From positions 3,070 through 67,069 of the forward strand of contig CAYVTP010000001.1 of assembly GCA_964454615.1 (NCBI GenBank): DNA of 64,000 nucleotides, written 5' to 3'. The notes under the pieces are model-generated. The model was not told the origin of the DNA, made no database searches, and worked only from the letters and a program-made list of their open reading frames with translations. The stretch is from an uncultured Acidimicrobiaceae bacterium (GTDB lineage Bacteria > Actinomycetota > Acidimicrobiia > Spongiisociales > ZC4RG35). The position numbers and the translations under genes are program-made. Positions 13,543 to 60,900 of this stretch are shown in pieces (the stretch's first letter is position 1; each line of letters opens with the position of its first letter).

Positions 13543-13593
13543 GGTCGTCACGCTCCTTTCACTCAGTATCTGGAGGCCCAACGCCCTCAACCT

Positions 13594-13971: not shown

Positions 13972-14014
13972 TTTGTTCACGCTCGCTTGTCTAGTCGTTC
14001 TCTCTCGTGTGTTC

Positions 14015-16006: not shown

Positions 16007-16049
16007 GTCGCCACCTCCACGGAGTCGGGTTCCGGCTCCAGCCAGAACC

Positions 16050-16066
16050 ATTAGTCAAGTACTAAT
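16050..16066. promoter_or_regulatory. AT-rich 6-5-6 palindrome ATTAGT-caagt-ACTAAT upstream of nosZ (candidate operator)
   Basis: The only AT-rich patch in the nosZ/DLH divergent intergenic region; perfect inverted repeat ~45-60 bp upstream of the nosZ ATG. Confidence 0.4.
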
Positions 16067-20801: not shown

Positions 20802-21739
20802 GGCCCGGGCGCCTGGTTGAGGAACAGGTCCTCGAGGGATGCCGAGCCCCGGATCATCCGGACCAGGCCGGCGTCGGCAGCCGCAGCTGCCTGGAGGACC
20901 GCCCTCTCCAGTTCCTGACCCGGTCCCACCACCAGCCTGACCCCGTCGACGGTGGCAGTGATCCCCTGCGACCGGAGCAGGTCGGCGACAGCGGCGGCAT
21001 CTCCGACCACCTCGACCGCCAGGTTGGCGTCCTTGTCGAACCCCTTGAGGGGGGCCGATCGGAGCAGACGGCCGGCGTCGAGCATGACCACCCAGTCGCA
21101 GGTCAGCTCGATGTCGGGGAGGACGTGAGAGCTGATGATCACGTCGATGTCGAAGGTGGCAAGACGCTTGATCAGGTCGAGCATCTGTTCCCGGCCCTCC
21201 GGGTCGAGGCCCGAGGCCGGCTCGTCGAGGAGGACCAGGTCAGGGTCGTGGACGATCGCCTGGGCCAGTTTCACCCTCTGGCGCATCCCTGTCGAGAAGT
21301 CTCCCAGGTACCTGAATCTCTCCTCCTCCAGTCCCACCAGGAAGAGAGTCTCCGAGGAGCGTCTCCGGGCGTCCTTTGGAGGGAGCCCGGCGAGCTGGGC
21401 GGTGAAGGACACGAAGTCGGCAGCGGTCTGGTCGACGGGGAGGCAGTCGCCCTCGGGCATGTAGCCCACCCGGGTCCTCACCTCCAGCGGTTCTTCCGAA
21501 GGATCATGTCCCAGGACCCTGACACCACCCTCGGTCTGGTGTAGCAGCCCGAGGAGGATCCGGAGAAGGGTCGTCTTGCCAGCGCCGTTGGCCCCAACAA
21601 GGCCGGTGACCCCCGGCGGCACACTCAGGGTCAGGTCGGTGAGTGCCTTGACATCGCCGTAGTCATGGGTCAGCCCGGAGACTTCGACGATGTTGGCTCG
21701 GTCCACGAACGGCACAGTCTTACAGGTCGGGGGAGCCAC
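20798..21739 (-). CDS. ABC transporter ATP-binding protein
   Basis: Walker A GANGAGKTT, signature FSTGMRQR, Walker B VLLDEP. Confidence 0.8.
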   Translation of the reverse strand: MAPPTCKTVPFVDRANIVEVSGLTHDYGDVKALTDLTLSVPPGVTGLVGANGAGKTTLLRILLGLLHQTEGGVRVLGHDPSEEPLEVRTRVGYMPEGDCLPVDQTAADFVSFTAQLAGLPPKDARRRSSETLFLVGLEEERFRYLGDFSTGMRQRVKLAQAIVHDPDLVLLDEPASGLDPEGREQMLDLIKRLATFDIDVIISSHVLPDIELTCDWVVMLDAGRLLRSAPLKGFDKDANLAVEVVGDAAAVADLLRSQGITATVDGVRLVVGPGQELERAVLQAAAAADAGLVRMIRGSASLEDLFLNQAPGP

Positions 21740-22721
21740 CGATCACGTCGGCAAAGCCGGCGCCCTGGGGACGGTCGAGCTGATCCATGGTGCACTCCTC
21801 CGCCGGCTTGTCCGGTCTCCAGCGATGAAACCTGGTGGCATGTCTGAACCGGTCTCCCTCCAGCTGATCGTAGGAGACCTCCACCACCACCCCGGGTTGG
21901 ACGGGTGTCCACGCACCGTCCTTGCCCCCCGACCAACGGCTCTGGGCCCCGGGAGCGCGGGCCGCCTCGGAGAAGCTGTCTTCCACGACCAGTTGCTGGA
22001 ACTGCTCGAAGATCTCGACGCGATCTGACTCGCCGAATCCGGAGCAGTGGCCGATGAAGTGCAACTCCCCCCGGTCGTTGTAGAGGCCGAGAAGGAGAGA
22101 GCCGATCTTGCCGCCATCCTTGTGCTCCCTGAAGCCCCCCACCACCACGTCGATGGTCCTCCTGTGTTTGATCTTGATCATCGCCCTCTTGCCGGGCTGA
22201 TATGGGGAGTCGGGGTCCTTGGCGATGATGCCGTCGCACCCGGCCGACTCGAAACCGTCGAACCACAGCCGGGCCTCATCCTCCTCTGAGGTCTGTGGGG
22301 TGAGGTGCCACGGGGGAGTGAGGTCGGAGGCGAGCGCCACCAGCCGCTCCCGCCTCTCGGAGAACGGGGCCGACCTGAGGTCCTGCCCGTCGACTGCCAG
22401 GAGGTCGAAGGCAACCAGCTCGGCGGGGTGACTCTCCGAGAGCAGCTCGACCCGAGAGGCGGCCGGATGGATACGCTGCTGGAGCGCCCCGAAGTCGGTG
22501 ACCCCGTCGACTACGACCACGATCTCCCCGTCCACCACCGTGCCCTCCGGGAGTTGCTCGAGTGCCGGTCTCAGCTCCGGGAAGTAACGGAGCAGCGGTC
22601 GCTCGCTCCGCGAGTCGAGCCGTATCAGGGGCTGTGACCAGGAGAGCGATCGGAACCCGTCCCACTTGGGCTCGTAGAGGAATCTCCCCTTCGGCCAGCC
22701 TTCGTAGACGCGAGCCTCCAT
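21720..22721 (-). CDS. ATP-dependent DNA ligase (LigD ligase domain/LigC-like)
   Basis: Adenylation motif I EPKWDGFR (KxDG), OB-fold C-terminal region. Start set at MEARVYEGWPKG (cat at 22719-22721), which avoids overlap with the downstream gene. The ORF extends in frame to 22835. Confidence 0.75.
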   Translation of the reverse strand: MEARVYEGWPKGRFLYEPKWDGFRSLSWSQPLIRLDSRSERPLLRYFPELRPALEQLPEGTVVDGEIVVVVDGVTDFGALQQRIHPAASRVELLSESHPAELVAFDLLAVDGQDLRSAPFSERRERLVALASDLTPPWHLTPQTSEEDEARLWFDGFESAGCDGIIAKDPDSPYQPGKRAMIKIKHRRTIDVVVGGFREHKDGGKIGSLLLGLYNDRGELHFIGHCSGFGESDRVEIFEQFQQLVVEDSFSEAARAPGAQSRWSGGKDGAWTPVQPGVVVEVSYDQLEGDRFRHATRFHRWRPDKPAEECTMDQLDRPQGAGFADVIGGSPDL

Positions 22722-22788
22722 GGTGGGGATGGTCGGTGGGAAGGGGTGACTCACGAAGGGCGAGTCTACGACGGATACCCTGGGGCCC

Positions 22789-23658
22789 ATGATCGACCGT
22801 CTGATGCGCCTGCCCATGGTGGACCTGCTCGCCACCGCCGGACAGTCGTTCGTCCAGTCGCGGGGGAGCCGGATGGCCGCAGCGATCGCCTATCGGACCA
22901 TTTTCGCCCTCGCCCCCCTTCTCCTGATCGCGGTCGCGGTGTTCGGGTGGGTGGTCGGAAGCTCGGAGGAGGCCCGCCTGGCGATCCTGGGCGCCATCGA
23001 GGGCTTCGCCGGCCCCAACGTCACCGACGCCGTGGAGACCATGATGATCTCGGCAGCGGCAACCAGCGGGTTCACCGCGGTGATCGGCTTCCTGCTGTTC
23101 GTTTGGGCGGCGTCGACACTGTTCTTGGAACTGCAGAACACCCTCAACGACATCTTCGGTGTTCCCTTCGAGGAGACTGCCGGGTTCAAGGGCTTGGTGA
23201 GGAAACGGCTGATTGGGTCGCTGTGGGCGGTGGGTCTCGGCTTGCTCACGGTGGGTGTTTGGGTCCTCAACGTGGCATCAGGATGGTTGGGCTCGCTGCT
23301 CCCCGACACCCTGGCGGCGCTCAGGACCGTCATCGACTGGCTCTCACCACTCCTTTCCCTGGTGGTGTTCCCGCTGGTGTTCACCCTCATCTTCAGGACC
23401 CTGACCGCGATCCGGATCAACAGAATGGCCGTGCGGGTCGGGGGGTTGTTCACCGCGGTGGTTTTCCTGCTGACCGCCATGGGGACCAGGATCTACTTCG
23501 AATGGGGCAGCGCTTCCTCGGCCCCCCAGTTCGCCGCCGGGTTCTTCGTGCTCCTGCTGCTCACCTTCTTCCTGGCGTCGGCGTTCCTGCTCGGGGCCCA
23601 CGTCACCAGGGTCTACAACCAGCGATTGGAGGAGCCCGTCGGCTCCGCGAGCGGATAG
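22789..23658 (+). CDS. YihY/BrkB family membrane protein
   Basis: YihY signature (RMAAAIAYRTIFALAPLLL...), 6 TM. Confidence 0.75.
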   Translation: MIDRLMRLPMVDLLATAGQSFVQSRGSRMAAAIAYRTIFALAPLLLIAVAVFGWVVGSSEEARLAILGAIEGFAGPNVTDAVETMMISAAATSGFTAVIGFLLFVWAASTLFLELQNTLNDIFGVPFEETAGFKGLVRKRLIGSLWAVGLGLLTVGVWVLNVASGWLGSLLPDTLAALRTVIDWLSPLLSLVVFPLVFTLIFRTLTAIRINRMAVRVGGLFTAVVFLLTAMGTRIYFEWGSASSAPQFAAGFFVLLLLTFFLASAFLLGAHVTRVYNQRLEEPVGSASG

Positions 23659-47990: not shown

Positions 47991-48161
47991 GCTGATTCCA
48001 TGGTCGGGCCCGCCCTGGGCTCTCTCGGACTCGCCGCCGGCCCTGCTCTCCTGTTCACTCACCTGTCCGGCATTCTCGCGCGCCTCCCGCCGGGGTGCGG
48101 CTACGCCAGCAGTGTCTGGACGTCGGCGACGCACCTGAGACGACGGGGATACACTCCAGGC

Positions 48162-50738
48162 GTGGTCAGCAGCGCGCCCCTTGTGGAGCGTGACGAGCAG
48201 CTCCTCCGACTCCAGGCTGCTGCTTCGTCCAAGACCGGAAGCGTGGTCCTGTTGTCAGGTGAGGCAGGGTCGGGCAAGACGTCCATCTTGTCACTTCTGA
48301 TGGATGGGCTCGACCATCGCTACAGGGTCCTGTCCGCCGCCTGCGAACCTGTTGGGGTCCCTGCCGGCTTTGCTCCCCTCTTCGAGATCTTGGACGAACT
48401 TCCGCAATCGGTTCGATCGGATGTCAGAGGAGGATCCGGCCGTACCGCGGTGCAGGCGGGTGTTCTGGAGATGCTCAGGTCCGATCGGTTGGTCCTGATC
48501 CTGGAGGACATCCATTGGGCTGATGAGGCAACCTTGGGGCTGGTTCGGTATCTGGGCCGCAGAATCGCCTCGACGATGAGCTGTCTGATCGTCACTTATC
48601 GAACAGAGGAACTTTCGCAAAGGCCTCTACTGGCCCTGGTGGTGGCCGACCTCGGGCCTTCAGCCGAGCGGATCGAACTCCTTCCCTTGACGCTCGCTGC
48701 AGTCGAGCAGTTGGCTCAAGGGGTCGATGTCGACCCGGTCAGGGTGCATGCCGTGACTCTTGGAAACCCGTTCTTCGTGAGTGAGGTCATCGCCAACCCG
48801 GAATCTGTCGTTCCGCCGTCGGTCGGGAGCGCAGTTCAGGCCCGAGTGAATCTCCTGTCCGACCTGGCCAAGGACCTGCTCTATATGGCAGCCATCAACC
48901 GCGATGCGGTCCCGATCGATCTTGCCGAAGAGTTGGGCCCGGGGGCTCTGGAACAGCTAGACACCGCGGTCCAAAGGGGTCTGCTGGTGGCCACGGCAAC
49001 TCACTTCTCCTGCCGGCACGACCTGATCCGGGAGAGTCTTCACGAGATCGCGCCACCGACCCTGAAGAGGACCATCCATCGCCGGCTCTTGGGCTTCTAT
49101 GAGGGGCGGGAAGACCACACGTCGGACATCGCACGCCTTGCCTATCACGCCAGAGGCGCGGGAGAAGAGTCGGCGGCGTTGCGCTATTCGCTACGTGCCG
49201 CAGAGGATGCGTCGGCGAGCGGAGCCCACCGCCAGTCAGCCTTCCATTTTGCCAACGCTCTGGAATACCGGGAGCTTCTGGACCCGGAGTCTCTCGGCCG
49301 GGTCCTCCTGGAAGCCGCGAAGGAACATTGCTTGGTGAATGCGTTCGATCAGGCTACGGAGTGGGCATCCCAACGTTTGGAACTCGCCAACGGGCCAGAT
49401 GAGATGGCGGCGGCACGGGCCTGGTTGGCCTACTTCATATCCCGGGAGAACGATCTAGCCCCCGCACGACGGGAGGCCGAGGCGGCCTTGGAGACTCTCC
49501 GTCAGTCGACTCATTCGGAGGAGCTGGCTTTGGCGGCCTATGTTCTGTCCTGGATCGAACTTCATGAAGGACGCTTCGGGGAGGCGATCACTTTGGGGGA
49601 CTGGTCCGCGGAAGTGGCGTCTGAGATAGGGTCCGTCGGAGTAGAGGTCCATGCTCTAGCGGTCGCAGGGCGCGCACGAGTGCAGGCGGGGGACATCGGT
49701 GGGCTCCAGCTTCTAGACAGGGCGGTGCGGATTGGGCTCGATCACGAGTCGGTTGAGGCCGCCTCATTCGCCCTCATCTACAGGGCTTCTGCCCATTGGG
49801 AGCTGGGTCGGCTCGACGAGGCGCGGCGTCTCATCGAGGAGGCCGTCGACTACACGATGGAACGTGAGCTCGATGCCTGGTATGTGGCTGCGATTGCGAT
49901 GTTGGCCGACCTCGATGTCGCAACCGGTCGATGGGCGGGAGCTGATGTCGGATTGGAGCGTGTCCTCGGACAGAGGACCTGCAGACAGACCGAGATCCAA
50001 ATAATGAGGGCATCGGCGACGTTGAGACTGCGGCGCGGGGACCCCGGTGCGGCAGAGTTGGTGGGCCAGGCTCTCACCATGGCCGATGTATACGGCGGCT
50101 ACGACGAGCTCGTCCCTGCCTGCCTCCTGGCGGCGGAGGCAGCCTGGGTCGGCCTTGTCGATACTAAGAGAGCCGCTGCTCGTTACCAGACTCTGTCTGC
50201 TCATCCGGCCCTTGCCGGCGACCGTCGGGGCCGGAGTCGTCTCTCCTTCTGGGCGAGACGATTGGGGTTGGATCAGCTAGCACCAGCGACCGCCACCAAC
50301 TCCCAGTTAGAAGCGGCGAGGGAAGTCAGCCGATTCGAGAGTCTTGGGTTGCCCGTCGAAGAAGCCATCTCTCGGGCGATGGTGACAGATCCGAACCTCG
50401 ACCGGATCTTCTCGTCGCTATCCGAGATGAATGCCGACGGAGTCGCCCGGGGTCTGCGAAGGGAGCTTCAACGGCGCGGGATCAAGCATGTTCCCCGGGG
50501 TGAACGGCCGACGACCAGAGAGCATCCCGCAGGATTGACCGGGCGTCAGGTCGAGGTCCTAGGCCTCATATCGGCCGGTTTTTCGAACGCCGAGATCGCG
50601 GACCGCTTGTTCATCAGCGAGAAGACTGTCAGCCATCATGTGTCGGCCATCCTGGCCAAGCTCAACGTCGGCACCCGGCTCCAGGCGGCAGCAGTCGCCC
50701 ACGAGAAGGGCTGGTATCCGGCGGTGGCAGCAAACTAG
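48162..50738 (+). CDS. large ATP-binding LuxR-family transcriptional regulator (AAA + TPR-like + LuxR HTH)
   Basis: Walker A GEAGSGKTS near the N-terminus; C-terminal LuxR HTH (LTGRQVEVLGLISAGFSNAEIADRLFISEKTVSHHVSAIL). GTG start chosen at 48162; the ORF upstream overlaps chrA on the other strand. Confidence 0.75.
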   Translation: MVSSAPLVERDEQLLRLQAAASSKTGSVVLLSGEAGSGKTSILSLLMDGLDHRYRVLSAACEPVGVPAGFAPLFEILDELPQSVRSDVRGGSGRTAVQAGVLEMLRSDRLVLILEDIHWADEATLGLVRYLGRRIASTMSCLIVTYRTEELSQRPLLALVVADLGPSAERIELLPLTLAAVEQLAQGVDVDPVRVHAVTLGNPFFVSEVIANPESVVPPSVGSAVQARVNLLSDLAKDLLYMAAINRDAVPIDLAEELGPGALEQLDTAVQRGLLVATATHFSCRHDLIRESLHEIAPPTLKRTIHRRLLGFYEGREDHTSDIARLAYHARGAGEESAALRYSLRAAEDASASGAHRQSAFHFANALEYRELLDPESLGRVLLEAAKEHCLVNAFDQATEWASQRLELANGPDEMAAARAWLAYFISRENDLAPARREAEAALETLRQSTHSEELALAAYVLSWIELHEGRFGEAITLGDWSAEVASEIGSVGVEVHALAVAGRARVQAGDIGGLQLLDRAVRIGLDHESVEAASFALIYRASAHWELGRLDEARRLIEEAVDYTMERELDAWYVAAIAMLADLDVATGRWAGADVGLERVLGQRTCRQTEIQIMRASATLRLRRGDPGAAELVGQALTMADVYGGYDELVPACLLAAEAAWVGLVDTKRAAARYQTLSAHPALAGDRRGRSRLSFWARRLGLDQLAPATATNSQLEAAREVSRFESLGLPVEEAISRAMVTDPNLDRIFSSLSEMNADGVARGLRRELQRRGIKHVPRGERPTTREHPAGLTGRQVEVLGLISAGFSNAEIADRLFISEKTVSHHVSAILAKLNVGTRLQAAAVAHEKGWYPAVAAN

Positions 50739-50805
50739 GCAGTCTGTCCGATGCCATCAGCTGCCCCTTGCCCGTAGTTTCCTCGGTGTGAAGGATGGTC
50801 GATAG

Positions 50806-51099
50806 GTGCCCCGCTATATGGTCGAGCGAGCTTTCCTCGAAGACGCCGATGTTCCCTACGGCTCCTGGCCCCGCCAGCGATTCGTCGAGGTGATCGCATG
50901 CAACTTGGATCGGCGGGTCACTTGGCTCCACTCCTACATCTCGACCGACCCACCGACCGTTTTCGACCTCGTCGAAGCACCGAGTCCTGAAGCGGTCAGG
51001 CTGACGGCGCGTATGAATGGGTTACCCGTCGACCGAATCATCGAGGTGACCACGTTCGACCCTTATGCGTATCGGATGTTGACCGAGCCGGGGTCATGA
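50806..51099 (+). CDS. DUF4242 family protein
   Basis: 97 aa; MPRYMVER..., WLHSYIS, GLPVDRIIEV match DUF4242. Confidence 0.6.
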   Translation: MPRYMVERAFLEDADVPYGSWPRQRFVEVIACNLDRRVTWLHSYISTDPPTVFDLVEAPSPEAVRLTARMNGLPVDRIIEVTTFDPYAYRMLTEPGS

Positions 51100-51449
51100 C
51101 CCTCGGTGGTGAAGGCGAAGCCGAAGGCCCCATGTGTCGCGGCCCGGCCGACTCCCGTCCAACGGGGCATGCCAATCCCTAGCGCAATTGTGTGCGGCCT
51201 CCAGGTCAGTTCTGGTCACACTCCGTCTGTACGGTCGATGAAATGGACTTGGCCAGCTTCACTTTGGGTATAGCGGTCGGTGTGGTCGGCACCGCGATCA
51301 GTGACTTCCTCCGACCCTGGATCTCAAGAGCGAACCGACGTCTCGCCTCCTGGCTGGATGCGAAGGGCGATGAGCGGGCCGGCAGGAGGGCCGAGAGAGA
51401 GGCGAAGCGGAAGAAGCCCTGATCTCGCTACCGCCGGCTCCGCTGCTCA

Positions 51450-52313
51450 TTAGGGCCAGTTGAGTCCTTCAACCAACTCGCCAGTGCAGGTCCCGTCGCC
51501 GTGGAATGTGATCACGGCGGTGAAGTCCTCCCACTTGCGTAGAACAAGGTCAACGGCGCACACCAACATCCCCTTCTCGAGCCACTGGCCTTGGGCACAG
51601 CTGCGTCCCGAAGGGCATGTGGCGGAGAACACCTCGAGTCGTGAGGGGTGCGATCTATCGAAGAGCATCGCCGCCCGGCCGGGGCGGAACCATCCGCCGT
51701 CGGGTGAGATGTAGAGGAGAGGGTCGCCCGTCTCTGTCGGGGGCGCCGTCTCGATGAGGAAATGGTACCCAGAGGGATCTCCATCTAGCACCAGCGCCAA
51801 CTGCGGTTCTGCCCACCACGGTTCTGGCATGTTGGGGTCGGTAAGATCAACCTCGATGGCCTCCTCAGGGCAGCTCCAACAGGTCTTCTCCTCCGCCAGC
51901 GACAGGGTGAATCGCTCCGGTAGGGCGGATCGGTCGACTGCCAACCAGAACATGGCCGGGTTGGCGTCAGCGGTGCACCCGCCACTGAATATCCCCGTGT
52001 CGAAACGGTATCTCCCGTAGACATGGTCCTCTTCGATCACCAGTCCCCGGAAGGAGATTTCAGGGCAGGATCCGGAGACTGCATGTCCGAGCCCGATGAG
52101 GACCTGCTCTTCGAAGTTGATCGTGGGCTTGTCCAGGGCGAGGTGAAATCTCTCCCAGATACGATCGACGTCGTCCTGGGACTGGGCCAAGACCACCGAG
52201 TACGTAGGGCCATTCCGGTCGAAAGCAACCAGCTGCCATCCCCTCCCTGAACTGACGTCTCCGCATGCCGCCAGCACGGCAACCGCCAGCACAGCAACGA
52301 CGACGCGTTTCAT
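51450..52313 (-). CDS. Cys-rich secreted lipoprotein, hypothetical
   Basis: Lipobox VLAACGD after MKRVVVAVLAVA (cat at 52311-52313); several CxxC-like pairs (CWSCPEE, CPSGRSC). Confidence 0.55.
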   Translation of the reverse strand: MKRVVVAVLAVAVLAACGDVSSGRGWQLVAFDRNGPTYSVVLAQSQDDVDRIWERFHLALDKPTINFEEQVLIGLGHAVSGSCPEISFRGLVIEEDHVYGRYRFDTGIFSGGCTADANPAMFWLAVDRSALPERFTLSLAEEKTCWSCPEEAIEVDLTDPNMPEPWWAEPQLALVLDGDPSGYHFLIETAPPTETGDPLLYISPDGGWFRPGRAAMLFDRSHPSRLEVFSATCPSGRSCAQGQWLEKGMLVCAVDLVLRKWEDFTAVITFHGDGTCTGELVEGLNWP

Positions 52314-52465
52314 TGCTCTTTGGACGATGCTGGCCTTGACCCGGTTCCTGGGCGGATCAGGTCCCAGACAGCGGCTCCCGTCCTGACCCCTTCCTGCTTC
52401 ATGAGGCGAGTGCTGAAAGCGCCTGACTAGAGGACGAACGTCCGCAATCGGGGAAGCGGCTCGTT

Positions 52466-52846
52466 CTAGTCGCCATCGGGTGTGGGCCACCCGGATGTGA
52501 TCCCGTCGGAGCGAATCACGGAAACGGCGGCTTGGTCGAGAAGTCGGGGCGCGACCTCGGCGACCGCCCGAGTGGCCCGGGCGTGCAGATCGGCTAGGAC
52601 CGAGTCGACATCGTCCTCGCTGATGTCGTCGGAGAGCTCCACGAAGGCGACGATGCTGTTTGTGGAGTGGTCGAAGTCTGTGGCCGCGTTGCGAACCTCT
52701 GGGCTATCGAACATTGCGTAGTGAACAGCTGGTACTGCTTTGTCGATCAGCTCGGTGATGATTGGCTCAGGTGACGGCGAGCAGGCCACAGCCAAGAGGG
52801 AAGCCAAAGTGGTGGCGGCCAATAGCTGTGGTCGTCTCATGTTCAT
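52466..52846 (-). CDS. small lipoprotein, hypothetical
   Basis: Lipobox LLAVACS; GAGAGGA SD before MNMRRPQ. Confidence 0.5.
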   Translation of the reverse strand: MNMRRPQLLAATTLASLLAVACSPSPEPIITELIDKAVPAVHYAMFDSPEVRNAATDFDHSTNSIVAFVELSDDISEDDVDSVLADLHARATRAVAEVAPRLLDQAAVSVIRSDGITSGWPTPDGD

Positions 52847-53031
52847 TAGATGTCCTCTCATCCACAAGTAGTTCCAGGAGGCCTATGCCAAATCTACAAG
52901 GCAGACGAATCGCGGATGCGCGGGGCGCCCCGGCTGCTCCAACGAGGTGAAGTTCCTCCGGACACGCCGCCGACCCTCGGGGCGGCAACGGGCGGACGGG
53001 GTACCTTTCCTGGCGTGAGACCTGGACGGCG

Positions 53032-53844
53032 GTGGTGAGCCGCAAGGGGTTGATCGGTTCTGCTGGCGGGGTGGCCCTAGCCGTGCTGGTTGTCATGAGT
53101 GTCTCGGAACTGGGACGGCTCTCTGAATACCTTGGACACCCGTTCCCCTGGGTCCTGGCGACGGTGCCCTGGTTGGTAGGACTCGGGGCTGTCCTTGGCG
53201 TTGCTCTTCGCCTCAGCCCAAGGTATCCAGCCCTGGCCGGGGTGGCTGCCGGACTGTTGATCCTTGCTTACATCACAAGACGTCCGATCGGTTCTCTGAC
53301 CACTTCCTTCGTTCAACTGAAGGGTTACGCACCGGTCAGCGTTTTCATCATCGGAGTGCTGCTGACGGCGACTGCCTTCGCTCTTCGCGGTCGGCCCGGG
53401 TCAGCGGATGACGGATTTGGCTTGAGGCGATCCGGTCTCGCAGCAGTGCTCGGGTTCCTGCTGGCGCTGGTCTCCGCCTATGTGCTCCTCCCTCTACTGG
53501 GCCTCCACAACAGGTCAATGTCCGGCCTGGACTGGTCGGGGATGCCGTGGTTGGTACTCGGCCTGACTCTGTTTGGCGGCGCATTCGGTGTGCTCGTCTG
53601 GGCGGCACTGAGAACGACAGCTCTCGGCCTTGGCGCACTGGCCGGTCTCACAATGCTGATAGTCACCACTCCTTGGCTTTGGACCGGTGGGTTGCGGCTG
53701 GGCCCCTCATCGTACGGGCTCGCAGTGGGTTCGCCGGTGGGCTTGATCATGGTCGGAATGCTCCTGGTCACAGTGTTCCCCAGCCGTCGAGCATCCGAGC
53801 GGCCACCGGTCACAATCCCGACTGATTCGGTTTCCGCCAGGTGA
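53032..53844 (+). CDS. hypothetical polytopic membrane protein
   Basis: 270 aa, ~7 TM. GTG start. Confidence 0.5.
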   Translation: MVSRKGLIGSAGGVALAVLVVMSVSELGRLSEYLGHPFPWVLATVPWLVGLGAVLGVALRLSPRYPALAGVAAGLLILAYITRRPIGSLTTSFVQLKGYAPVSVFIIGVLLTATAFALRGRPGSADDGFGLRRSGLAAVLGFLLALVSAYVLLPLLGLHNRSMSGLDWSGMPWLVLGLTLFGGAFGVLVWAALRTTALGLGALAGLTMLIVTTPWLWTGGLRLGPSSYGLAVGSPVGLIMVGMLLVTVFPSRRASERPPVTIPTDSVSAR

Positions 53845-53958
53845 GCGGGTTGCCGAGCTTCCTGGTGGGTGCTGCGAGGGGATGACGACACCTGGCGGCG
53901 TGGTTCTTCGGGCCTTTTGTCAGTTGAGGTCTCGCCTCCCTCACGTTGCCCTCACTAC

Positions 53959-54190
53959 GAAGAAAGGCGACTTACCGGCGCCGCCCTTCTCCGCTTCTCT
54001 CAGTTGTCTCCCGGGCCCTTTCGGCCCGAACCGCTAACTCCGGCTCAAGTGCGAGTGCTGAAAACGCCACTCTCATTCCGAGAAAACGACACTCTCATTC
54101 CATTGACAACGCCCAGGATCCGAGTGTGTAGACGCTCATCAGCTGTGAAGTGACAGGTAAATGCGACGGGAAGTGACACTGTCGCACTTG
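53959..54190. repeat. structured intergenic element R1
   Basis: GC-rich block with GGGCC-cuuuc-GGCCC hairpin. Tandem 22-bp units at 54068..54112 (CACTCTCATTCC core). CTCATCAGCTG at 54135..54145. Terminal hairpin TGCGAC-gggaaGTGACActg-GTCGCA. Confidence 0.8.
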
Positions 54191-54219
54191 CCGCTTGAAG
54201 GTTCGTGGGCCTTCGTGCT

Positions 54220-54657
54220 TCAGTCCTTCTCAGGCCTGTCGTCGGGGTTGAACACCGCTACCTGCTGTGTCCCCCCGAGGCACCGAGTAGGGATGTCGAC
54301 CTCGAGGGTCTCCCTGCGGGTGTAGCCGCCTGCTCCGCGAACCTTCTCGCCGACAGCCAGCCGCTCGCCTGAAGGGAGGCGAACGACGAAGGGGTCGGTC
54401 GATGCGATCCGGGTTCCACTCGGCCAGATCACCGGATACCAATGGGACACGTCGGGCCACTCGAGCACCACACATCCATCACGAACAGCGAGGAGTCCGC
54501 CAACGATGGCGTCAGTCCCTCCTCGTGGTAGTAGCGAGCCCGAATGCACGTAGATGGTGTACTCGCCGGACTCGACCGCACGCTGGGCAGGCCCTGAGCA
54601 GGCCAGCAGAGCCAGGAGGGACGCTGCGACAAGCACGACTCTGACCGTTCTCACCAC
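54220..54657 (-). CDS. secreted lipoprotein, hypothetical
   Basis: Signal/lipobox LLALLACSG. GTG start. Preceded and followed by R-elements. Confidence 0.5.
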   Translation of the reverse strand: MVRTVRVVLVAASLLALLACSGPAQRAVESGEYTIYVHSGSLLPRGGTDAIVGGLLAVRDGCVVLEWPDVSHWYPVIWPSGTRIASTDPFVVRLPSGERLAVGEKVRGAGGYTRRETLEVDIPTRCLGGTQQVAVFNPDDRPEKD

Positions 54658-54699
54658 TTCTTGGACGACGTCTCGCCGTCGGCCGGTTCCGGCCCCCGT

Positions 54700-54910
54700 T
54701 TCGGCCGGCTCCCTCCGCCTTCTCCGGGTGTTCTCCCGGGCTTGCTCGGCCCGAGTCTTGAGTCCTACTCAGAATGCGACCGCTGTCAGTTCCACTCGCA
54801 TTTCGTGTCAGAACCACTCGCATTCGGTGTCAAGACCCGTCGCACTGCCTTTCAGTTCTCATCAGCTGTGAACTGACAGGGAAACAAGAGCGAAATTGAC
54901 ACGCTCTCAA
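54700..54910. repeat. structured intergenic element R2
   Basis: GC-rich hairpins. Tandem 22-bp units at 54792..54835 (CCACTCGCATT core). CTCATCAGCTG at 54858..54868. Hairpin AGAGCG-aaaTTGACA-CGCTCT. Confidence 0.8.
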
Positions 54911-54959
54911 CTTGGTACTTCTTCCAGGGACGTAAGGGCCCGCTGCTCCAAATGGAGGC

Positions 54960-55883
54960 TCACCTGGTGCACGCCGCGTGATCGGCGATCACCTCATCGA
55001 TCACCGAGAGGGCGTTCTTCCGCCACCCAAAGCTCATTCCCGCAACTCGCGCCGCAGACTGGCTCGCCTCCGTTGCCTCAACGTGAGTAATCAGGGCCTT
55101 CCACAACGCCCATCCACGGGCGCGTGCCCACGTCCCGGAGTCGAACCCGACGGCGTCGCGAAACATGCGGCGACTCAAGTCGTCGAAAAAGGTCCAGGCC
55201 ATGGTCAGATCGCAGGCAGGATCCCCGACGGCCATGGTCCCGAAATCAATCACCGCGCTGAGCCGCCCATCAGTGACGAGCAGGTTGGACGGGGTGACGT
55301 CGCCGTGTAACCAGACCGGTTGCCCTTGCCAAGACGATGACAGGCTCGTCTCCCACACCGACATGACAGCGCTGGCGTCAAGGTCGTCCTCGAGTACGTC
55401 GACAGCCTGCCGCGTCTGGTCGTCGTAGATCTCCGGCGACGCGCCGCGAAAGAAGTTGTGCTGGCCGGGGGGTGGCCCGGCGGCCGAGGGAATGGCATAC
55501 AAGTCGTTCAAGAATTCTCCGAGGCAGCGAGCGAACTCAACCGGATCTGTCACGTTGTCGACTGTTGCGCCGACCCCGGGCAACCATCGGTAGATGGACC
55601 ACGCCCGCGGAAATCCGCAGGCCGCGCTGCCTTTTGCCAGCGGCTGTGGAATCGGGAGTGGGAGATGCTCGGCGAGGTAGGGCAGCCACCGGTGTTCCTT
55701 GTCAACCTGTGCGCTATACGCATCCGCAGACGGCAGGCGTACCAACATCTCGGTCCCGAGCCTGTAGGTGGTGTTGTCCCACCCGTCTTGGTCGACGGGT
55801 GTGATGGGCATCTCAGCCCACAGGGGAAACTGCGACTTGATCAAGCATGCAACAACGGATGGGGTGATGTCAGACTTTTTCAC
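54960..55883 (-). CDS. aminoglycoside/choline-kinase-like phosphotransferase (APH family)
   Basis: HGDVTPSNLL and IDFG motifs (Brenner and DFG-like). GTG start with AGGAA upstream. Confidence 0.75.
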   Translation of the reverse strand: MKKSDITPSVVACLIKSQFPLWAEMPITPVDQDGWDNTTYRLGTEMLVRLPSADAYSAQVDKEHRWLPYLAEHLPLPIPQPLAKGSAACGFPRAWSIYRWLPGVGATVDNVTDPVEFARCLGEFLNDLYAIPSAAGPPPGQHNFFRGASPEIYDDQTRQAVDVLEDDLDASAVMSVWETSLSSSWQGQPVWLHGDVTPSNLLVTDGRLSAVIDFGTMAVGDPACDLTMAWTFFDDLSRRMFRDAVGFDSGTWARARGWALWKALITHVEATEASQSAARVAGMSFGWRKNALSVIDEVIADHAACTR

Positions 55884-55956
55884 ACGCGTTCCTGGCTCGA
55901 AGTTGTCTCTTCACCTCTTCTGTCGTACGCATCGTTCCTGACAGTGCCTCCAGTAT

Positions 55957-56119
55957 GAAGAGAGGCGACCTACCCCGGCCGCCTCTCCGCTCCTTTTGGT
56001 TTGTTTATTGAGCGCCGCTCAAAATGAGAGTCCTGTCAAACCCACTCTCATTCCTTGGCAAACCCACTCTCATTCCGTGGCAAAACCCAGGATGAGAGTA
56101 TGTCAATACTCATCAGCTG
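55957..56119. repeat. structured intergenic element R3 (overlaps the last codons and stop of nrdJ)
   Basis: 5' GC-rich block GAAGAGAGGCGACCTACCCCGGCCGCC nearly identical to R1. Tandem 22-bp units at 56041..56085. CTCATCAGCTG at 56109..56119. Hairpin GAGTA-tgtcaa-TACTC. Confidence 0.8.
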
Positions 56120-59100
56120 CACCCGGTCGTGTCTCCGCAGGTGAGGCAGACGTAGCAGTTTCCGTTGCGGATGGTCATGTGGCCGCAGTTTGAGCATGCG
56201 GGCGCATCACCCATGTTCTCTCTCAGGGCCAGATCAGCCGCATTGGTCTTGGTGACCGTCATCGAGGCGGTGGCAACAGTCGCGGAGTAGGTGAGAGACG
56301 AGCTCGCTTCGCTCGCACCCCCCTCGCCCGGACTCCGTCCGTGCGGTCCCCCCACGAGTGGGGGGACACTGCCCGCTTCACTCGCACCCCCCTCGCCCGG
56401 ACTGCGTCCAGAAGGAACACCAACCGACTCGACCCCGCCGTTGGGGGAGTCGACGAAATCGGCCGCACTCTGCAGGGCGTCGATGTCGATCTCGGCGACA
56501 GCCTCCTCGAGGGTGGCTTGCACCCCGGCCTCCACAGCCAGACCCTTGGGCGGCTCGGGGAGCTCCCGGTCGGGTGGCACCTGGGCTAGCTCATCACGCT
56601 CCAGGTACTCCACACCCAGGGCCCGGAACACGTAGTCGATGATCGAGTTGGCCATCTTGATGTTGGGGTGGCCTTCGACCATGCCCCTCGGCTCGAAGGT
56701 CTGGAAGGTGAAGGTGTCGACGAACTCGTCGAGCGGCACCCCGTACTGGAGACCCTTCGACACCGCGATGGCGAAACAGGAGAGAATCCCCTTCAGGGTC
56801 GCACCCTCCTTGGCGAGGTCGATGAAGATCTCGCCAAGAGTCCCGTCGTCGTACTCGCCCGTGCGGAGGTATACCTTGTGGCCACCTACACGTGCCTCCT
56901 GGTTGAAGCCGTGTCGCTTGGCGGGGAGCAGGAACCTCGGGGGCTGCAGACCCTGTGCGTATGCCTGGGTCGGGGAGAGCCCCTTGGGCAGGTTGCCCCA
57001 GTGGATCGCCTTCTCGGCCTCGACCGCGGTGGTCACCGCAGCGTCCTCCTCCTCACTGTCCTCGCCCTCGTCGGCAGTGGAGTTGAGCGGCTGAGCCGCC
57101 TTCGACCCGTCCCGGTAGATGGCCATCGCCTTCAACCCCAGCTCCCATGAGGTGTGATACGCCTCTGCAATCTCCTCGACGGTGATCTCGTTGGGCATGT
57201 TGATCGTCTTCGATATCGCACCCGAGATGAACGGTTGTGCCGCAGCCATCATCTGGATGTGGCCGTTGTGGTGGATGAACCGCTTCCCGTACTTGCCGTT
57301 CTTGTTGGCGGTGTCGAACACGGGCAGGTGCTCGTCCTTGATGTGTGGTGCGCCTTCGATGGTCTGGCGGCCACAGATGTGGTCGTTGGCCTCGTTGATC
57401 TGAGCCGAGGTGAACCCCAACTCCTTGAGGAGGTTGAAGTCCCATGCCGTGTATGCGTCGGGTGTCAGACCGATCCTCTGCAGGGTGTCCTCGCCGAAGG
57501 TGAACACGTTGAAGGCGTGCTTCAGTTCGAACACCGATGGCAGGACCTTCTCCAGCTTCTCCAGGTCGGACTCGTCGAAGCCCTTCGCCAGCAACGACTC
57601 CCGGTTGATGTGGGGTGCCCCGTCGACCGAGCTGGTTCCGACTATGTACCGGACCACTTCCATGATCTGGTCGTTGGAATATCCAAGGTTTCGCAGCGCC
57701 GGGGTGACTGACTGGTTGACGATCTTGAAGTAGCCGCCACCGGCCAGCTTCTTGAATTTGACCAGGGCGAAGTCGGGCTCCACCCCGGTGGTGTCGCAGT
57801 CCATCAGGAGCCCGATGGTGTTGTGCGACACGAACCCGTTGGCCACGTAGGTCACGTTGTCCGGCACCGACAGGTCAAAGGTCAGTTCCTCTTCACCCAG
57901 CTCGGCCGTGGTGACCCGGTCATAGAAGAAGCCGAGCAGGTGCCCGAGTTCGGTGTCCCCGGTCCGGTCCAACAACTCCTGAGCCGACCGACGGGAGACC
58001 ATGCCTGTGCGGCTCAATGCCATCAGCATCGTCTTTCTGAGGGCATCGTTCTCGGGGGCCAGACGGTCGACCAAATGCCTGGTCACCGGCACCCAGTCCA
58101 TCTTCGACGCCTGACGGGTGGTGATGGCCTGGACCGCTGCGTTCTTGCGGTCGCTCATGAAGCCGACCGAGTCGGTCCACAGCTGCCCGTATGACAGGTT
58201 GAGCACACGGAGTACTGCCAGCGGCGACCCGCCCCAACCAGTTGTGTCGAGCTTTCTGGTCGTGGGGATACCCATCGCAAGCAGGAGCGTCTGCACGTCG
58301 TGGGAGAACTCGATCGAGGTCGTTGACCATGTCGGGTAACCACCGTGATGGACAGAGCCGTCCGCTTCGAACAGTCCCCGAAGGAACGCCGAGTAGACCT
58401 CGGGATCGTTGCTGTGGAGCACCGCATCGGGAATGTGGGGGTGCCATCCCTTGCCGGTGTGTCCTTCTCGTGGAGCGACCTTGGCGAACCCGGAAGCTTC
58501 CCACCACAGGGTGAGGGGGACCGAGTGGAACGCCACTTCGTTGTATCCCGTCTGCTCGGTGACGTGGGCTTCCAGGCCGAACAGTTCTTTACCCAGGAAC
58601 GACAGCCGCTCGACGACGTCGAGGTCTTCGGCTGCGACGGCCATCCGGATGCCCTTGGCATGCAGAGAGCCATCGCCCATGAAGTAGCCGACGAACTCGG
58701 CCAACTCGGGGGTAACAGTCTTCGGGACTCGCGTCGAGAAGTCGCCGGTCCAGTGCATCTCACCAAGTGGCGGGAGTTGCACCACCTGTGGCTCGCCAAT
58801 CAACTGGTTCAGCTGGAGTGGCACGAGATCGTCGGCCGTGATCTGGGCAAAGCGCTTCCACTCCCAGGTGCCATCGCGCTGGACCACCCTGATCCGGTGA
58901 GTAGGGGTCCCCTTGATCCGGTAGCCACGGCTGGTCTCAACCGTGACCACTGGTTCGACACCATTGATGTAGAACTGCGAGGCGTTCCGAGGTCCTTCAT
59001 CGGTGGCGACGTCAATACCGAGGTCCTGCCATTCTTCGCCGTTGGCATCACCCAGCGAATTGAGCCGGACAAGACCACGCTCGGTCGGGATCAGAGAACC

Positions 59101-60900
59101 TCCAGCGAGGCACCCGGTGGGAGCGATAACGCTCTCCTGACCGTTCCGGTAGCCGTACTTCTCGCCGAGTTCCAACGCGAGGTCCCACGACTGTCTTGCT
59201 GCGTCGAGCATGTCAGACGGGCAGTAGTCAGGGTCCAACCCCACCACTGTGTGGCTAACGCCCTCGTAGGTTTCGTCGTTGTATGCAGCCCGACGGTGGT
59301 TACGCATAACGCGGAGCATCGCGTCTCGGTTCTCCTCATACTTCGGGAAAGGGCCGACCACGCTTGCGATCTCGGCCGACGTGGCGTACCCAAACCCAGT
59401 CAGGACGGCGGAGAGTGCACCGGCGATCGTCCTTCCCTCGTTGGAGTCGTAGGCGATGCCCTGACGCATAAGCAGAGATCCCAGGTTGGCGTAGCCGAGG
59501 CCGAGTGGTCGATAGTCGTATGACCCTTGTGCGATCTCCGCCGACGGGAAATGAGCCATGGCGACCGAGATCTCTAGAACGATGGTCCACAGTCTTACTG
59601 CATGCTTGTAGGCCTCGATGTCGAAGACACCCGATGTGTCATCGTAGAAACGGACCAGATTGATCGATGCCAGGTTGCAGGCAGTGTCGTTGAGGTAGAC
59701 GAATTCTGAACACGGGTTGGACGCGTAGATCTTTCCTCCAGCCGGGCTCGTGTGCCACTCATTGATGGTGGTGTCGAACTGGATGCCAGGATCGGCGCAG
59801 GCCCATGCGGCATCGGCGATCTTCTGCCACAAGTCACGTGCCTTGATGGTCTTTCGGACTGCACCGTCGGTTCGGTTGGTCAATGCCCAGTCGCCGTCGT
59901 CGAGGACGGCCTGAACAAACTCGTTGGTGACCCTCACCGAGTTGTTCGAGTTCTGACCCGAGACCGTGGCGTAGGCCTCGCCGTTGAAGTCTGCCGGGTA
60001 CCCACCATGCTGAATGAGGATTCGGGCCTTCTCCTCCTCGACCTTCTTCCACTCGATGAACTTCTCGATGTCCGGGTGATCGACGTCGAGGATGACCATC
60101 TTGGCGGCACGGCGTGTGGTGCCACCCGACTTGATCGCACCCGCAGCACGGTCCCCGATCTTGAGGAAAGACATGACTCCGGAGGACTTGCCACCACCAG
60201 AGAGACGCTCGTTCTCGCCCCGGATCTCGGAGAAGTTGGAGCCGGCACCGGAGCCGAACTTGAAGATCCGCGCCTCACGCAGCCAAAGGTCCATGATCCC
60301 ACCGGGGTTCACCAGATCGTCCTTGGCCGAGAGTATGAAACAGGCATGCGGGGCAGGGCGGCTGTAGGAGTCGGGTGAGGAGGTCAGTTCCTCGGTCTCG
60401 CTGTCCACGTACCAGAAGCCCTGGGCGGGCCCTTCGAGTCCGTAGGCGAAGTTGAGACCGGTGTTGAACCACTGAGGGGAGTTGGGCGACGCCATCTGGT
60501 TGGCGAGCATGAACTTGAGCTCGTCCTCGAACGCCTGGGCGTCCTCGGTCGAGGCGAAGTAGCCCTCGCGCTCGCCCCAGTGGCGCCAGGTCCCGGCGAG
60601 ACGATCGAACACCTGCTTGGCGGACTGCTCGGGGCCGAGCACCGGGTTGCCTTTGGCGTCGATTAGCGGGCTGCCTTCGGCGTCGACCTGGGGGACACCG
60701 GCCTTGCGGAAGTACTTGGAGACCATGATGTCGGAGGCCACCTGGCTCCACCCGGCGGGGATCTCGGCCCCGGTCATCTCGAACACCACCGAGCCGTCGG
60801 GATTGGAGATCTTCGAGTCGCGGTAGGACCACTCGAAACTGTCGTAGGGGTCGGCCCCTGCCTGGGTGAAGCGGCGGTTGATCCGCAGGCCTTCGCTCAT
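56113..60900 (-). CDS. nrdJ: adenosylcobalamin-dependent (class II) ribonucleotide reductase NrdJ, intein-containing, with C-terminal Zn-ribbon
   Basis: Class II RNR catalytic core (active-site Cys regions NPCSEF..., thiyl loop). C-terminal CSNCGH...CYVCLTCG zinc finger. GGAGGAGG SD. The 1595 aa include a 431-aa intein. Confidence 0.9.
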   Translation of the reverse strand: MSEGLRINRRFTQAGADPYDSFEWSYRDSKISNPDGSVVFEMTGAEIPAGWSQVASDIMVSKYFRKAGVPQVDAEGSPLIDAKGNPVLGPEQSAKQVFDRLAGTWRHWGEREGYFASTEDAQAFEDELKFMLANQMASPNSPQWFNTGLNFAYGLEGPAQGFWYVDSETEELTSSPDSYSRPAPHACFILSAKDDLVNPGGIMDLWLREARIFKFGSGAGSNFSEIRGENERLSGGGKSSGVMSFLKIGDRAAGAIKSGGTTRRAAKMVILDVDHPDIEKFIEWKKVEEEKARILIQHGGYPADFNGEAYATVSGQNSNNSVRVTNEFVQAVLDDGDWALTNRTDGAVRKTIKARDLWQKIADAAWACADPGIQFDTTINEWHTSPAGGKIYASNPCSEFVYLNDTACNLASINLVRFYDDTSGVFDIEAYKHAVRLWTIVLEISVAMAHFPSAEIAQGSYDYRPLGLGYANLGSLLMRQGIAYDSNEGRTIAGALSAVLTGFGYATSAEIASVVGPFPKYEENRDAMLRVMRNHRRAAYNDETYEGVSHTVVGLDPDYCPSDMLDAARQSWDLALELGEKYGYRNGQESVIAPTGCLAGGSLIPTERGLVRLNSLGDANGEEWQDLGIDVATDEGPRNASQFYINGVEPVVTVETSRGYRIKGTPTHRIRVVQRDGTWEWKRFAQITADDLVPLQLNQLIGEPQVVQLPPLGEMHWTGDFSTRVPKTVTPELAEFVGYFMGDGSLHAKGIRMAVAAEDLDVVERLSFLGKELFGLEAHVTEQTGYNEVAFHSVPLTLWWEASGFAKVAPREGHTGKGWHPHIPDAVLHSNDPEVYSAFLRGLFEADGSVHHGGYPTWSTTSIEFSHDVQTLLLAMGIPTTRKLDTTGWGGSPLAVLRVLNLSYGQLWTDSVGFMSDRKNAAVQAITTRQASKMDWVPVTRHLVDRLAPENDALRKTMLMALSRTGMVSRRSAQELLDRTGDTELGHLLGFFYDRVTTAELGEEELTFDLSVPDNVTYVANGFVSHNTIGLLMDCDTTGVEPDFALVKFKKLAGGGYFKIVNQSVTPALRNLGYSNDQIMEVVRYIVGTSSVDGAPHINRESLLAKGFDESDLEKLEKVLPSVFELKHAFNVFTFGEDTLQRIGLTPDAYTAWDFNLLKELGFTSAQINEANDHICGRQTIEGAPHIKDEHLPVFDTANKNGKYGKRFIHHNGHIQMMAAAQPFISGAISKTINMPNEITVEEIAEAYHTSWELGLKAMAIYRDGSKAAQPLNSTADEGEDSEEEDAAVTTAVEAEKAIHWGNLPKGLSPTQAYAQGLQPPRFLLPAKRHGFNQEARVGGHKVYLRTGEYDDGTLGEIFIDLAKEGATLKGILSCFAIAVSKGLQYGVPLDEFVDTFTFQTFEPRGMVEGHPNIKMANSIIDYVFRALGVEYLERDELAQVPPDRELPEPPKGLAVEAGVQATLEEAVAEIDIDALQSAADFVDSPNGGVESVGVPSGRSPGEGGASEAGSVPPLVGGPHGRSPGEGGASEASSSLTYSATVATASMTVTKTNAADLALRENMGDAPACSNCGHMTIRNGNCYVCLTCGDTTGCS
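56290..56410. repeat. near-perfect ~36-bp direct repeat inside the nrdJ C-terminal linker
   Basis: GCTTCGCTCGCACCCCCCTCGCCCGGACTCCGTCC and GCTTCACTCGCACCCCCCTCGCCCGGACTGCGTCC encode the duplicated peptide GRSPGEGGASEA. Confidence 0.75.
57820..59112 (-). mobile_element. intein with LAGLIDADG homing-endonuclease domain inserted in NrdJ (residues 597-1027)
   Basis: Begins Cys (APTG|CLAGGSLIPT) and ends ...GFVSHN followed by +1 Thr (TIGLLMD). Two LAGLIDADG motifs (FVGYFMGDGSLH, LRGLFEADGSVH). The flanking extein residues rejoin into a contiguous RNR sequence. Confidence 0.8.

Follow-up and report, generated by a model that had tools for sequence, protein, structure and literature searches.

Repeat modules downstream of the nrdJ gene in an uncultured Acidimicrobiaceae bacterium: probable ends and junctions of small mobile cassettes

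The nrdJ locus described here is located in a 64,000-nucleotide stretch of DNA (termed the window) from an uncultured Acidimicrobiaceae bacterium (GenBank assembly GCA_964454615.1, contig CAYVTP010000001.1, positions 3,070 to 67,069). The window represents ordinary chromosomal DNA of a high-GC bacterium, and its nearest named relatives are metagenome-assembled genomes (MAGs) of the Acidimicrobiia/Acidimicrobiaceae. Three related modules, termed R1, R2 and R3, are found between genes on the minus strand at 53.9–56.2 kb. R1 is 3′ of nrdJ, which encodes a class II ribonucleotide reductase, R2 is 3′ of an APH-family kinase gene and R3 is 3′ of a lipoprotein gene; the three genes are also on the minus strand. 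The modules were noticed in a sequence-only reading, which considered them as cis-regulatory or processing RNA elements or small RNAs (sRNAs), as protein-binding arrays with a 22-bp phasing, or as the remnant of a simple local duplication. The observation is real: all three modules are found in the sequence, as are most of the features described for them.

An 11-mer, CAGCTGATGAG, is invariant in the modules and occurs exactly three times in the 64 kb, always on the minus strand and once per module (positions 56119–56109, 54868–54858 and 54145–54135); the chance expectation for this sequence with one mismatch is about 1.6 matches in the window. It had been placed at or overlapping the stop codon of each gene. 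This is the case in R1 only, where nrdJ ends ...TGC AGC TGA TGA; in R2 the 11-mer is 91 nt beyond the APH stop codon, and in R3 it is 74 nt beyond the lipoprotein stop codon. Similarly, a hairpin with a TTGACA loop is present in R1 and absent from R2. Every module displays two direct AATG(A/C)GAGTG cores at a distance of 22 nt, together with one imperfect inverted copy (one or two had been described), and R1 and R3 have a GC-rich terminal hairpin block in common. The "mutually exclusive stems" that had been attributed to the modules are a trivial outcome of two direct copies and one inverted copy of a binding-site motif.

An alignment of R1–R3 has a mean column identity of 69%. R2 and R3 reach about 46 nt further 5′ than R1, and this extension, consisting of a hairpin plus CCTGTCAnTTCA, is homologous between the two. 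It shows no homology to the 3′ end of nrdJ, and its origin as a remnant of that end was rejected. A covariance model of the unit region yielded no other copy of a module in the window and none in 20 related loci (~195 kb), and the modules are thus not a dispersed repeat of the repetitive extragenic palindrome (REP) or miniature inverted-repeat transposable element (MITE) type. Copies do exist in relatives.

Left ends, right ends and the spacer between them

The modules can be divided into two kinds of segment: a left end (LE), which is the nrdJ-proximal half, and a right end (RE), which is the other half of R2 and R3. On this reading R1 is nrdJ-LE1, R2 is RE1-GCTGA-LE2, and R3 is RE2-GCTGA-LE3. 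Two units result, E1 (LE1-APH-RE1, positions 56112–54867) and E2 (LE2-lipoprotein-RE2, positions 54861–54144). The segments and the genes that they enclose are listed in Table 1.

Table 1. Positions of nrdJ, of the ends and junctions, and of the genes they accompany (RE, right end; LE, left end; GC3, GC content at third codon positions)
Feature	Position in window	Strand	Basis and details
nrdJ, class II ribonucleotide reductase with LAGLIDADG intein	56113..60900	-	Pfam Ribonuc_red_lgC, Ribonuc_red_2_N, TSCPD, Intein_splicing, LAGLIDADG_3
GCTGA copy 1, nrdJ-LE1 junction, includes nrdJ stop TGA	56113..56117	-	Sequence; same 5 bp at the other junctions
LE1 (R1)	55955..56112	-	Terminal inverted repeat TGAGTATTGACA; cores 56065-56074, 56043-56052; inverted core 56023-56032; small hairpin; GC-rich terminator-like hairpin ~55960-55988
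APH-family phosphotransferase gene, E1 cargo	54960..55883	-	Pfam APH 2.1e-43; GC3 0.77; whole unit absent from L067-L069
RE1 (5′ part of R2)	54867..54914	-	Hairpin GAGAGCG..CGCTCTT, then CCTGTCAGTTCACA, final CA
GCTGA copy 2, RE1-LE2 junction	54862..54866	-	Sequence
LE2 (3′ part of R2)	54663..54861	-	TGAGAACTGAAAGG..; cores 54815-54824, 54793-54802; inverted GTCGCATTC; three GC-rich hairpins
Lipoprotein gene, lipobox LLAC, E2 cargo	54220..54657	-	Homologues 97% (L067-L069) and 79% (L066) in a like LE/RE frame
RE2 (5′ part of R3)	54144..54190	-	Hairpin AGTGCGAC..GTCGCATT, then ACCTGTCACTTCACA
GCTGA copy 3, RE2-LE3 junction	54139..54143	-	Sequence
LE3 (3′ part of R3)	53955..54138	-	TGAGCGTCTACACA..; cores 54090-54099, 54068-54077; inverted copy 54048-54057; hairpins; nrdJ-type terminator-like hairpin ~53959-53991
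Rest of variable low-GC3 island, LE3 to syntenic chromate-transporter gene	48140..53954		Membrane protein gene, two lipoprotein genes, SCO4226-like gene, AAA/LuxR regulator gene

The left ends have a common plan. They are about 160–200 bp long, begin with TGAG.., and contain three or four units of about 22 bp, (c)TGACAnnGAATGnGAGTGG, of which the last is inverted; a terminator-like hairpin closes the segment. Two of the units are strong direct copies, accompanied by terminal and inverted partial units, all in a 22-bp phasing. The right ends are shorter (about 48 bp) and consist of a hairpin followed by CCTGTCAnTTCACA. A terminal unit and one L+A′ unit can be made out in them by eye, both below the threshold of the position weight matrix. 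RE1 and RE2 are homologous to each other (score 25 versus a shuffle mean of 13; 0/500 shuffles). The 5-bp direct repeat GCTGA is present at both flanks of every unit, in the window as well as in the related loci L039 and L067 described below.

The two kinds of end were compared without gaps, with the reading of LE started at the first base past GCTGA and that of the reverse-complemented RE at the base immediately ahead of GCTGA. Aligned in this way, and in register across the 5-bp spacer, they form terminal inverted repeats that are imperfect, some 38 bp in length, and have the termini 5′-TG...CA-3′. The best pair is LE2 of L067, TGAGAGATGACAGAGGAATGCGACGGATTTTGACAC, with the reverse complement of RE2, TGTGAAGTGACAGGTAAATGCGACGGGAAGTGACAC, which match at 27 of 38 positions (0/2000 shuffles). 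The ends of window unit E1 match at 19 of 38 positions (0/2000 shuffles), and those of L039 and of a further locus, L041, at 16 of 38 each (33/2000 and 40/2000 shuffles, respectively). The reverse complement of RE begins TGTGAA(n)TGACA and LE begins TGAGAA(n)TGACA, the third base of LE being A and not T. L041 is a junction at another locus and reads ..TTCACA-CATAG-TGAAAAG..; it keeps the termini and has a different 5-bp spacer.

The NrdJ amino acid sequence ends in ..CGDTTGCS*, and the 3′ codons of the gene are ..TGC AGC TGA, followed by TGA. These last codons together with the stop codon would be the target of insertion. Transcription of nrdJ probably stops at the terminator-like hairpins on the inner side of LE, and this may be their only role at the RNA level.

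Related loci with and without the element

Species-representative genomes and metagenomes were scanned with one pattern each. The genome scan yielded a single true homologue, in an uncultured Acidimicrobiaceae MAG (L001), where the element is found directly past the nrdJ stop codon. In the metagenome scan, four loci with the double unit (L010, L039, L047 and L053) likewise display it directly past nrdJ; the further matches were L035, with its 5′ end cut off, and L041, the variant junction described above. Together with the window, L066 and L067–L069, there are ten loci (eight distinct) in which LE directly follows the nrdJ stop codon in the same orientation. These copies in relatives show that the repeat family is real and is not the simple local duplication remnant that had been considered.

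The element is not found in seven close NrdJ relatives obtained by protein look-ups (L059–L065), which have a plain GC-rich hairpin 3′ of the stop codon. Because of these seven homologues, the distribution among close relatives is patchy and resembles that of an insertion. At two of these "empty" sites, end-like bases occur right past GCTGA: TGTGAAGGACCACTGACC at L061:7269–7290, and TGAAGCCTGACGAGG at L064:928–945. These bases could have been left by an end that has since decayed, or they could represent a B′-type half-site. Phage and plasmid collections gave no match to the element, and scans of viral contigs gave nothing related to it. One IMG/VR contig (L078, positions 600–720, GC 0.60) displays four units at a 22-nt spacing with the core (G)CAATG(C/A)GAGTGA, beside a gene with a weak match to a sigma-70 region-4 helix-turn-helix. 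Its likeness to the A core may be due to chance, and the neighbouring genes are uninformative.

The arrangement of the ends outside the window is seen in L039, L066 and L067–L069. In L039 the two halves are apart. The sequence nrdJ-TAGCTGA-TGAG.. leads into LE at about 268–440, and a lone RE is found 3.1 kb downstream at 3385–3450, followed by unrelated sequence. This RE consists of the hairpin ATGCGAC..GTCGCAT, then CCTGTCATTTCACA, then GCTGA. A methyltransferase gene and an HD/LuxR regulator gene are present between the two ends on the opposite strand.

L067–L069, which were reached through homologues of the lipoprotein, are 95–96% identical to the window. Here nrdJ...CAGCTGATGAG joins LE2 directly, and the lipoprotein gene and RE2-GCTGA-LE3 follow. 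The window thus has exactly 1,251 extra bp (LE1-APH-RE1), which are bounded by the 11-bp direct repeat. The LE2 region itself is uneven in its conservation: the repeat-unit part, the first 100 bp (window 54761–54861 versus L067:315–405), is 87% identical, whereas identity over the remainder of the shared 900 bp is about 97%. This difference suggests conversion or recombination within the ends; judging from these sequence comparisons, the ends evidently also undergo homologous recombination with one another. The window and L067–L069 differ by a second indel, which measures 1,095 bp (window 52880–53974) and contains a membrane-protein gene (53032–53844, plus strand). One of its breakpoints is within the terminator hairpin of LE3, and its boundaries are not end-like. 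A homologue of this gene is found in L066, between LE and the lipoprotein gene.

L066, whose identity to the window is about 80%, displays full synteny over a stretch that begins with an abhydrolase gene, includes nrdJ and extends to the genes for the chromate transporter, DUF4328 and ClpP. Its single LE...RE unit encloses a membrane-protein gene and the lipoprotein gene, and next to this unit is an LE in decay, GGATGCGATTGGTCTGCACGGA (in L067, GAATGCGATTGGTTCTGCCACGGA).

The genes that accompany the ends differ from locus to locus: an APH gene, lipoprotein genes, membrane-protein genes, a methyltransferase gene with a regulator gene, and genes of the anti-phage system CBASS. The latter are directly downstream of the nrdJ-adjacent LE in L047 (positions 279–2788, SAVED-HNH effector and CD-NTase) and in L053 (positions 316–2363, cyclase and E2-like protein). 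A DUF222-HNH gene is also present in L053. Endonuclease genes of this type were observed near the 3′ end of nrdJ both with the element (L053:2900–4189, minus strand) and without it (L061:7591–8724, minus strand); DUF222-HNH is the family of the mycobacterial 13E12 repeats.

In the window, all genes between nrdJ and the chromate-transporter gene (48.1–56.1 kb) have a GC3 of 0.69–0.77, as compared with 0.82–0.90 elsewhere. In the part beyond LE3 (48140–53954) the values are 0.69–0.74, against 0.82–0.90 in core genes, and this segment may be an older unit, E3, that has lost its right end. Different gene sets are found at the position of the island in L062, L064 and L066, beside the same syntenic core (Xan_ur_permease, AzlC, PNP_UDP_1, ClpP).

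Some further observations concern nrdJ and its surroundings. The nrdJ intein is a segment of 1,293 bp (window 57820–59112, minus strand) that matches Pfam Intein_splicing and LAGLIDADG_3. The syntenic L066 is without exactly this segment, the blast alignment leaping from window position 59113 to 57819. A tandem repeat of about 57 nt (..ccgggcgaggggggtgcgagcgaagcg..) is present in the 3′ part of nrdJ (window 56290–56410, and also L067:1–130); it codes for a repeated GRSPGEGGASEA linker just ahead of the C-terminal zinc-finger tail of NrdJ. A weak match to the Rfam family whalefall-1 (E = 0.13) falls on this repeat and looks spurious. Elsewhere in the window, a nitrous-oxide reductase cluster (nos propeller/cupredoxin protein, NosD, ABC components) and genes for a LigD primase-polymerase and an ATP-dependent ligase are found at 11437–16051 and 17286–22835; these are unrelated to the modules.

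Probable mobile cassettes and the rival explanations

Our preferred explanation, which we hold to be probable on balance, is that mobile cassettes have inserted at the nrdJ stop codon and that R1–R3 are their ends and end-to-end junctions. Observed features of these loci are the division into modules, the inverted repeats with their 5-bp spacer, the presence or absence of a unit in near relatives, the orientation, which is fixed, and the cargo, which varies. Most likely the units are small, non-autonomous and cargo-carrying, their insertion is specific as to site and orientation, and they are stacked at the nrdJ stop codon. The protein-binding arrays that had been offered as one possibility are near to this explanation, with the difference that the arrays look like transposon or recombination ends and not like replication iterons.

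Several results weigh against mobile cassettes. No transposase, TnsC-like ATPase, TniQ or integrase was found by Pfam and PADLOC searches in any unit or in the 64-kb window (window E1, E2 and island; L039, L047, L053 and L066), and for this reason the enzyme can only be postulated; an autonomous copy may be located elsewhere. Outside the window, an RE was found in no more than three independent contexts (L039, L066 and L041). The sequence downstream of LE yielded none in L053 (6.3 kb), in L047 (3.7 kb) and in L010 (1.5 kb), and a third one was not found in the window beyond LE3, where a match at 46229 falls in coding sequence. Homologues of the APH protein (~70% identity) and of the lipoprotein (63%) are present in unrelated contexts without ends, and thus no cassette is known from two different places in a genome. 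A deletion between direct repeats, instead of an insertion, could account for the polymorphism of 1,251 bp. Two further points, the first bases of LE and the close packing of the units, are taken up below with the Tn7 family.

The serious rival is recombination at a crossover core, (A)GCTGA, by a tyrosine recombinase or an integron-like system, and we regard it as unlikely. It would make RE-core-LE an attP- or attC-like site carried on circular cassettes and nrdJ-core-LE an attL site, with the 22-bp units as arm-type sites; direct-repeat arms do resemble lambda-type attP sites. The same core is present at both junctions of a unit (AGCTGA in L039, an 11-bp identity in the window), it is flanked by inverted repeats as core-type sites are, and abutting tandem arrays are normal in integrative elements and integrons. 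A B′ arm would look like the bases past GCTGA at the two "empty" sites (TGTGAAG in L061 and TGAAGCCTGAC in L064). Moreover, the GCTGA target sequence is reused at the units, and it could therefore be a recombination core. The evidence of L041 is opposed to this, since its termini are kept around a different spacer, CATAG; the spacer therefore seems to behave more like a duplicated target than like a fixed crossover core or overlap. In addition, the spacer of 5 bp is shorter than the usual overlap of 6–8 bp, no integrase was found in any unit or in the window, and there is neither a GTTRRRY core nor an attC architecture.

A structured RNA in the 3′ untranslated region (3′-UTR) is far less probable. 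In this explanation the upstream gene would be co-transcribed with an RNA that acts as a regulatory switch, as an element for processing or stability, or as an sRNA derived from the 3′-UTR, and the inverted core would pair alternately with either direct core. It agrees with the position of the three window copies, each of which follows a gene of the same orientation and has a terminator-like hairpin at its end. Folding of R1 is also in its favour, with −72.3 kcal/mol (z = −5.2) for the minus strand against −58.8 kcal/mol (z = −4.8) for the plus strand; any sequence rich in inverted repeats would, however, fold stably on both strands. In an alignment of ten sequences both alternative helices (A1:A′ and A2:A′) are 86–88% paired. 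However, compensatory changes between the copies, which would be expected for a selected fold, are confined to one of 11 stem positions (A-U, n = 4; C-G, n = 3; unpaired, n = 3). The covariation scores do not exceed those of column shuffles, and R3 and L067 carry A.G or G.G at this position. The "stem" sequences are conserved and the "loops" vary by subtype (TTGCCA, CTGACA, GGTCAC), which is the reverse of the pattern expected from a selected RNA fold.

A search against Rfam 15 gave nothing at gathering thresholds in the window and two irrelevant sub-threshold matches in 53700–56400. The separate halves in L039, the opposite-strand genes between the ends in L039 and L066, the seven close nrdJ orthologues without the element, and the inverted-repeat symmetry of RE and LE, for which there is no RNA rationale, also speak against an RNA element. 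The cis-regulatory or sRNA interpretation of the sequence-only reading is thus poorly supported.

Several more specific candidates were rejected. A hammerhead ribozyme was prompted by the sequence CUGAUGA, but this sequence is followed by neither GAAA nor a stem III, and Rfam gave no match. Selenocysteine insertion or recoding at UGA-UGA with a SECIS-like hairpin does not agree with R2, where the 11-mer is out of frame with the APH stop codon (98 nt offset); the in-frame position in R3 (81 nt) would come about by accident in one case out of three. Small open reading frames starting from ATG within the units have their frame broken by the 22-nt period, and their peptides are not conserved. The sequences do not fit NrdR boxes, CsrA GGA sites, sigma-70 promoters at TTGACA or dif/Xer sites, and a scan gave no promoter-like site.

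The least probable of the alternatives, to which we give hardly any credence, is that the modules are passive remnants of local duplication and that ordinary homologous recombination among the copies and the DNA of relatives shuffles the genes downstream of nrdJ, with no dedicated mobility mechanism. The uneven conservation of LE2, the boundaries of the 1,095-bp indel and the appearance of window E2 plus E3 as a permuted version of the single unit of L066 would agree with it. It leaves unexplained the in-register terminal inverted repeats with their constant 5-bp spacer, the TG..CA termini, the same nrdJ-stop boundary in divergent lineages with unrelated cargo, and the L041 junction at another locus.

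Among other DNA elements, single-strand ends of the IS200/IS605 or IS91 type were rejected, the hairpin loops of RE and LE being mutually inverted and not direct, as was an IS110 bridge RNA, since no complementarity of LE to the nrdJ target was seen by eye.

Relationship to known systems and significance

Mobile cassettes at the nrdJ stop codon require a mechanism, and by analogy the anatomy of the ends would be that of a DDE element of the Mu/Tn7/Tn402 type. The units show TG..CA inverted repeats, a 5-bp flanking direct repeat, units of about 22 bp packed at the gene-proximal end with fewer at the distal end, a fixed orientation, variable low-GC3 cargo that includes defence genes (CBASS) and a resistance-type kinase gene, and older distal units that are displaced and decaying. 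In such a scheme a DDE transposase of this type, supplied in trans, would bind the 22-bp units, and a target selector would recognise the conserved 3′ coding end of nrdJ. Insertion would duplicate GCTGA and so preserve the stop codon, and every new insertion would go between nrdJ and the previous unit. Taken alone, this specific DDE/Tn7-like mechanism has a little less than an even chance of being correct in our estimation.

The Tn7 family is the closest known system because of its site and orientation specificity, with insertion just past a conserved essential gene that is left intact. Its known sites are downstream of conserved genes such as glmS, nrdB (in Acinetobacter) and nrdD (in some bacteria and archaea). 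Ribonucleotide reductase genes (nrdB, nrdD) have become attachment sites of this family on repeated occasions, and the family includes an Actinobacteria-dominated clade and abundant defence cargo (bioRxiv 10.1101/2025.07.27.667033; PMC11014353; PMC8649781).

There are also clear differences. The tnsA/B/C and tniQ genes were not found in any unit or in the window, the units measure 0.7–3 kb with one or two genes, and the target is nrdJ, with insertion at the stop codon itself. The LE begins with TGAG, whereas Tn7-like ends typically begin with TGT. RE and the next LE are only 5 bp apart at R2, R3 and L041, which conflicts with the target immunity described for Tn7-like elements (PMC11014353). 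Membership in the Tn7 family is therefore not established, the negative search for transposition genes, the start of LE and the abutting units all being at variance with it. As to the sequence of the termini, we presume a likeness to the published ends of Tn7 and ShCAST.

Other systems share part of these properties. Integron cassettes form one-orientation arrays of single-gene, non-autonomous cassettes, split by structured imperfect-palindrome sites (attC) that share a short core, and their cargo includes genes of the aminoglycoside-phosphotransferase family. Unlike integrons, the units described here have no intI or attI and their core is (CA)GCTGA and not GTTRRRY; unlike attC, the sites have a length of 250 bp and are built of terminal inverted repeats and direct units of 22 bp, and some units contain opposite-strand genes. 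Integrons are not expected in the actinobacterial host lineage.

Tandem tyrosine-integrase elements at the 3′ ends of genes (attL/attP-like/attR arrays, e.g. tRNA-targeting islands and cargo arrays of the tycheposon type) resemble the units in the short identical segment at each junction, the regenerated end of the target gene, the tandem accretion and the decayed distal units. They differ from them in that here no integrase is seen, the 5-bp spacer is not the same at L041, and the symmetry is that of terminal inverted repeats. MITEs and other non-autonomous derivatives with passenger genes also have inverted-repeat ends without a transposase and are presumably mobilised in trans; the copies described here, however, are not dispersed, their insertion is site-specific, and the ends are long and asymmetric with internal repeats.

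A more far-reaching proposal, which we put forward tentatively and regard as doubtful, is an integron-like gene-capture platform with Tn7/Mu-like ends in the Acidimicrobiia. Single-gene, non-autonomous cassettes would be mobilised in trans and would accumulate in a stack at the nrdJ stop codon without target immunity, so that genes for resistance, envelope and anti-phage (CBASS) functions form an array whose members can be exchanged.

The modules also serve as a caution, in that repeated hairpin-rich intergenic modules can be the ends of DNA elements instead of RNA elements, and the ends provide a concrete search model for the missing enzyme. If mobile cassettes are the correct explanation, units with Tn7/Mu-like ends that stack head to tail would be a natural example of miniature cargo units, unexpected under target immunity. 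A class II gene would then join the ribonucleotide reductase genes that serve as attachment sites. In this uncultured actinobacterial lineage, the 3′ end of nrdJ would be an insertion hotspot at which tiny cassettes of one or two genes accumulate, among them a resistance-type kinase, surface proteins and CBASS.

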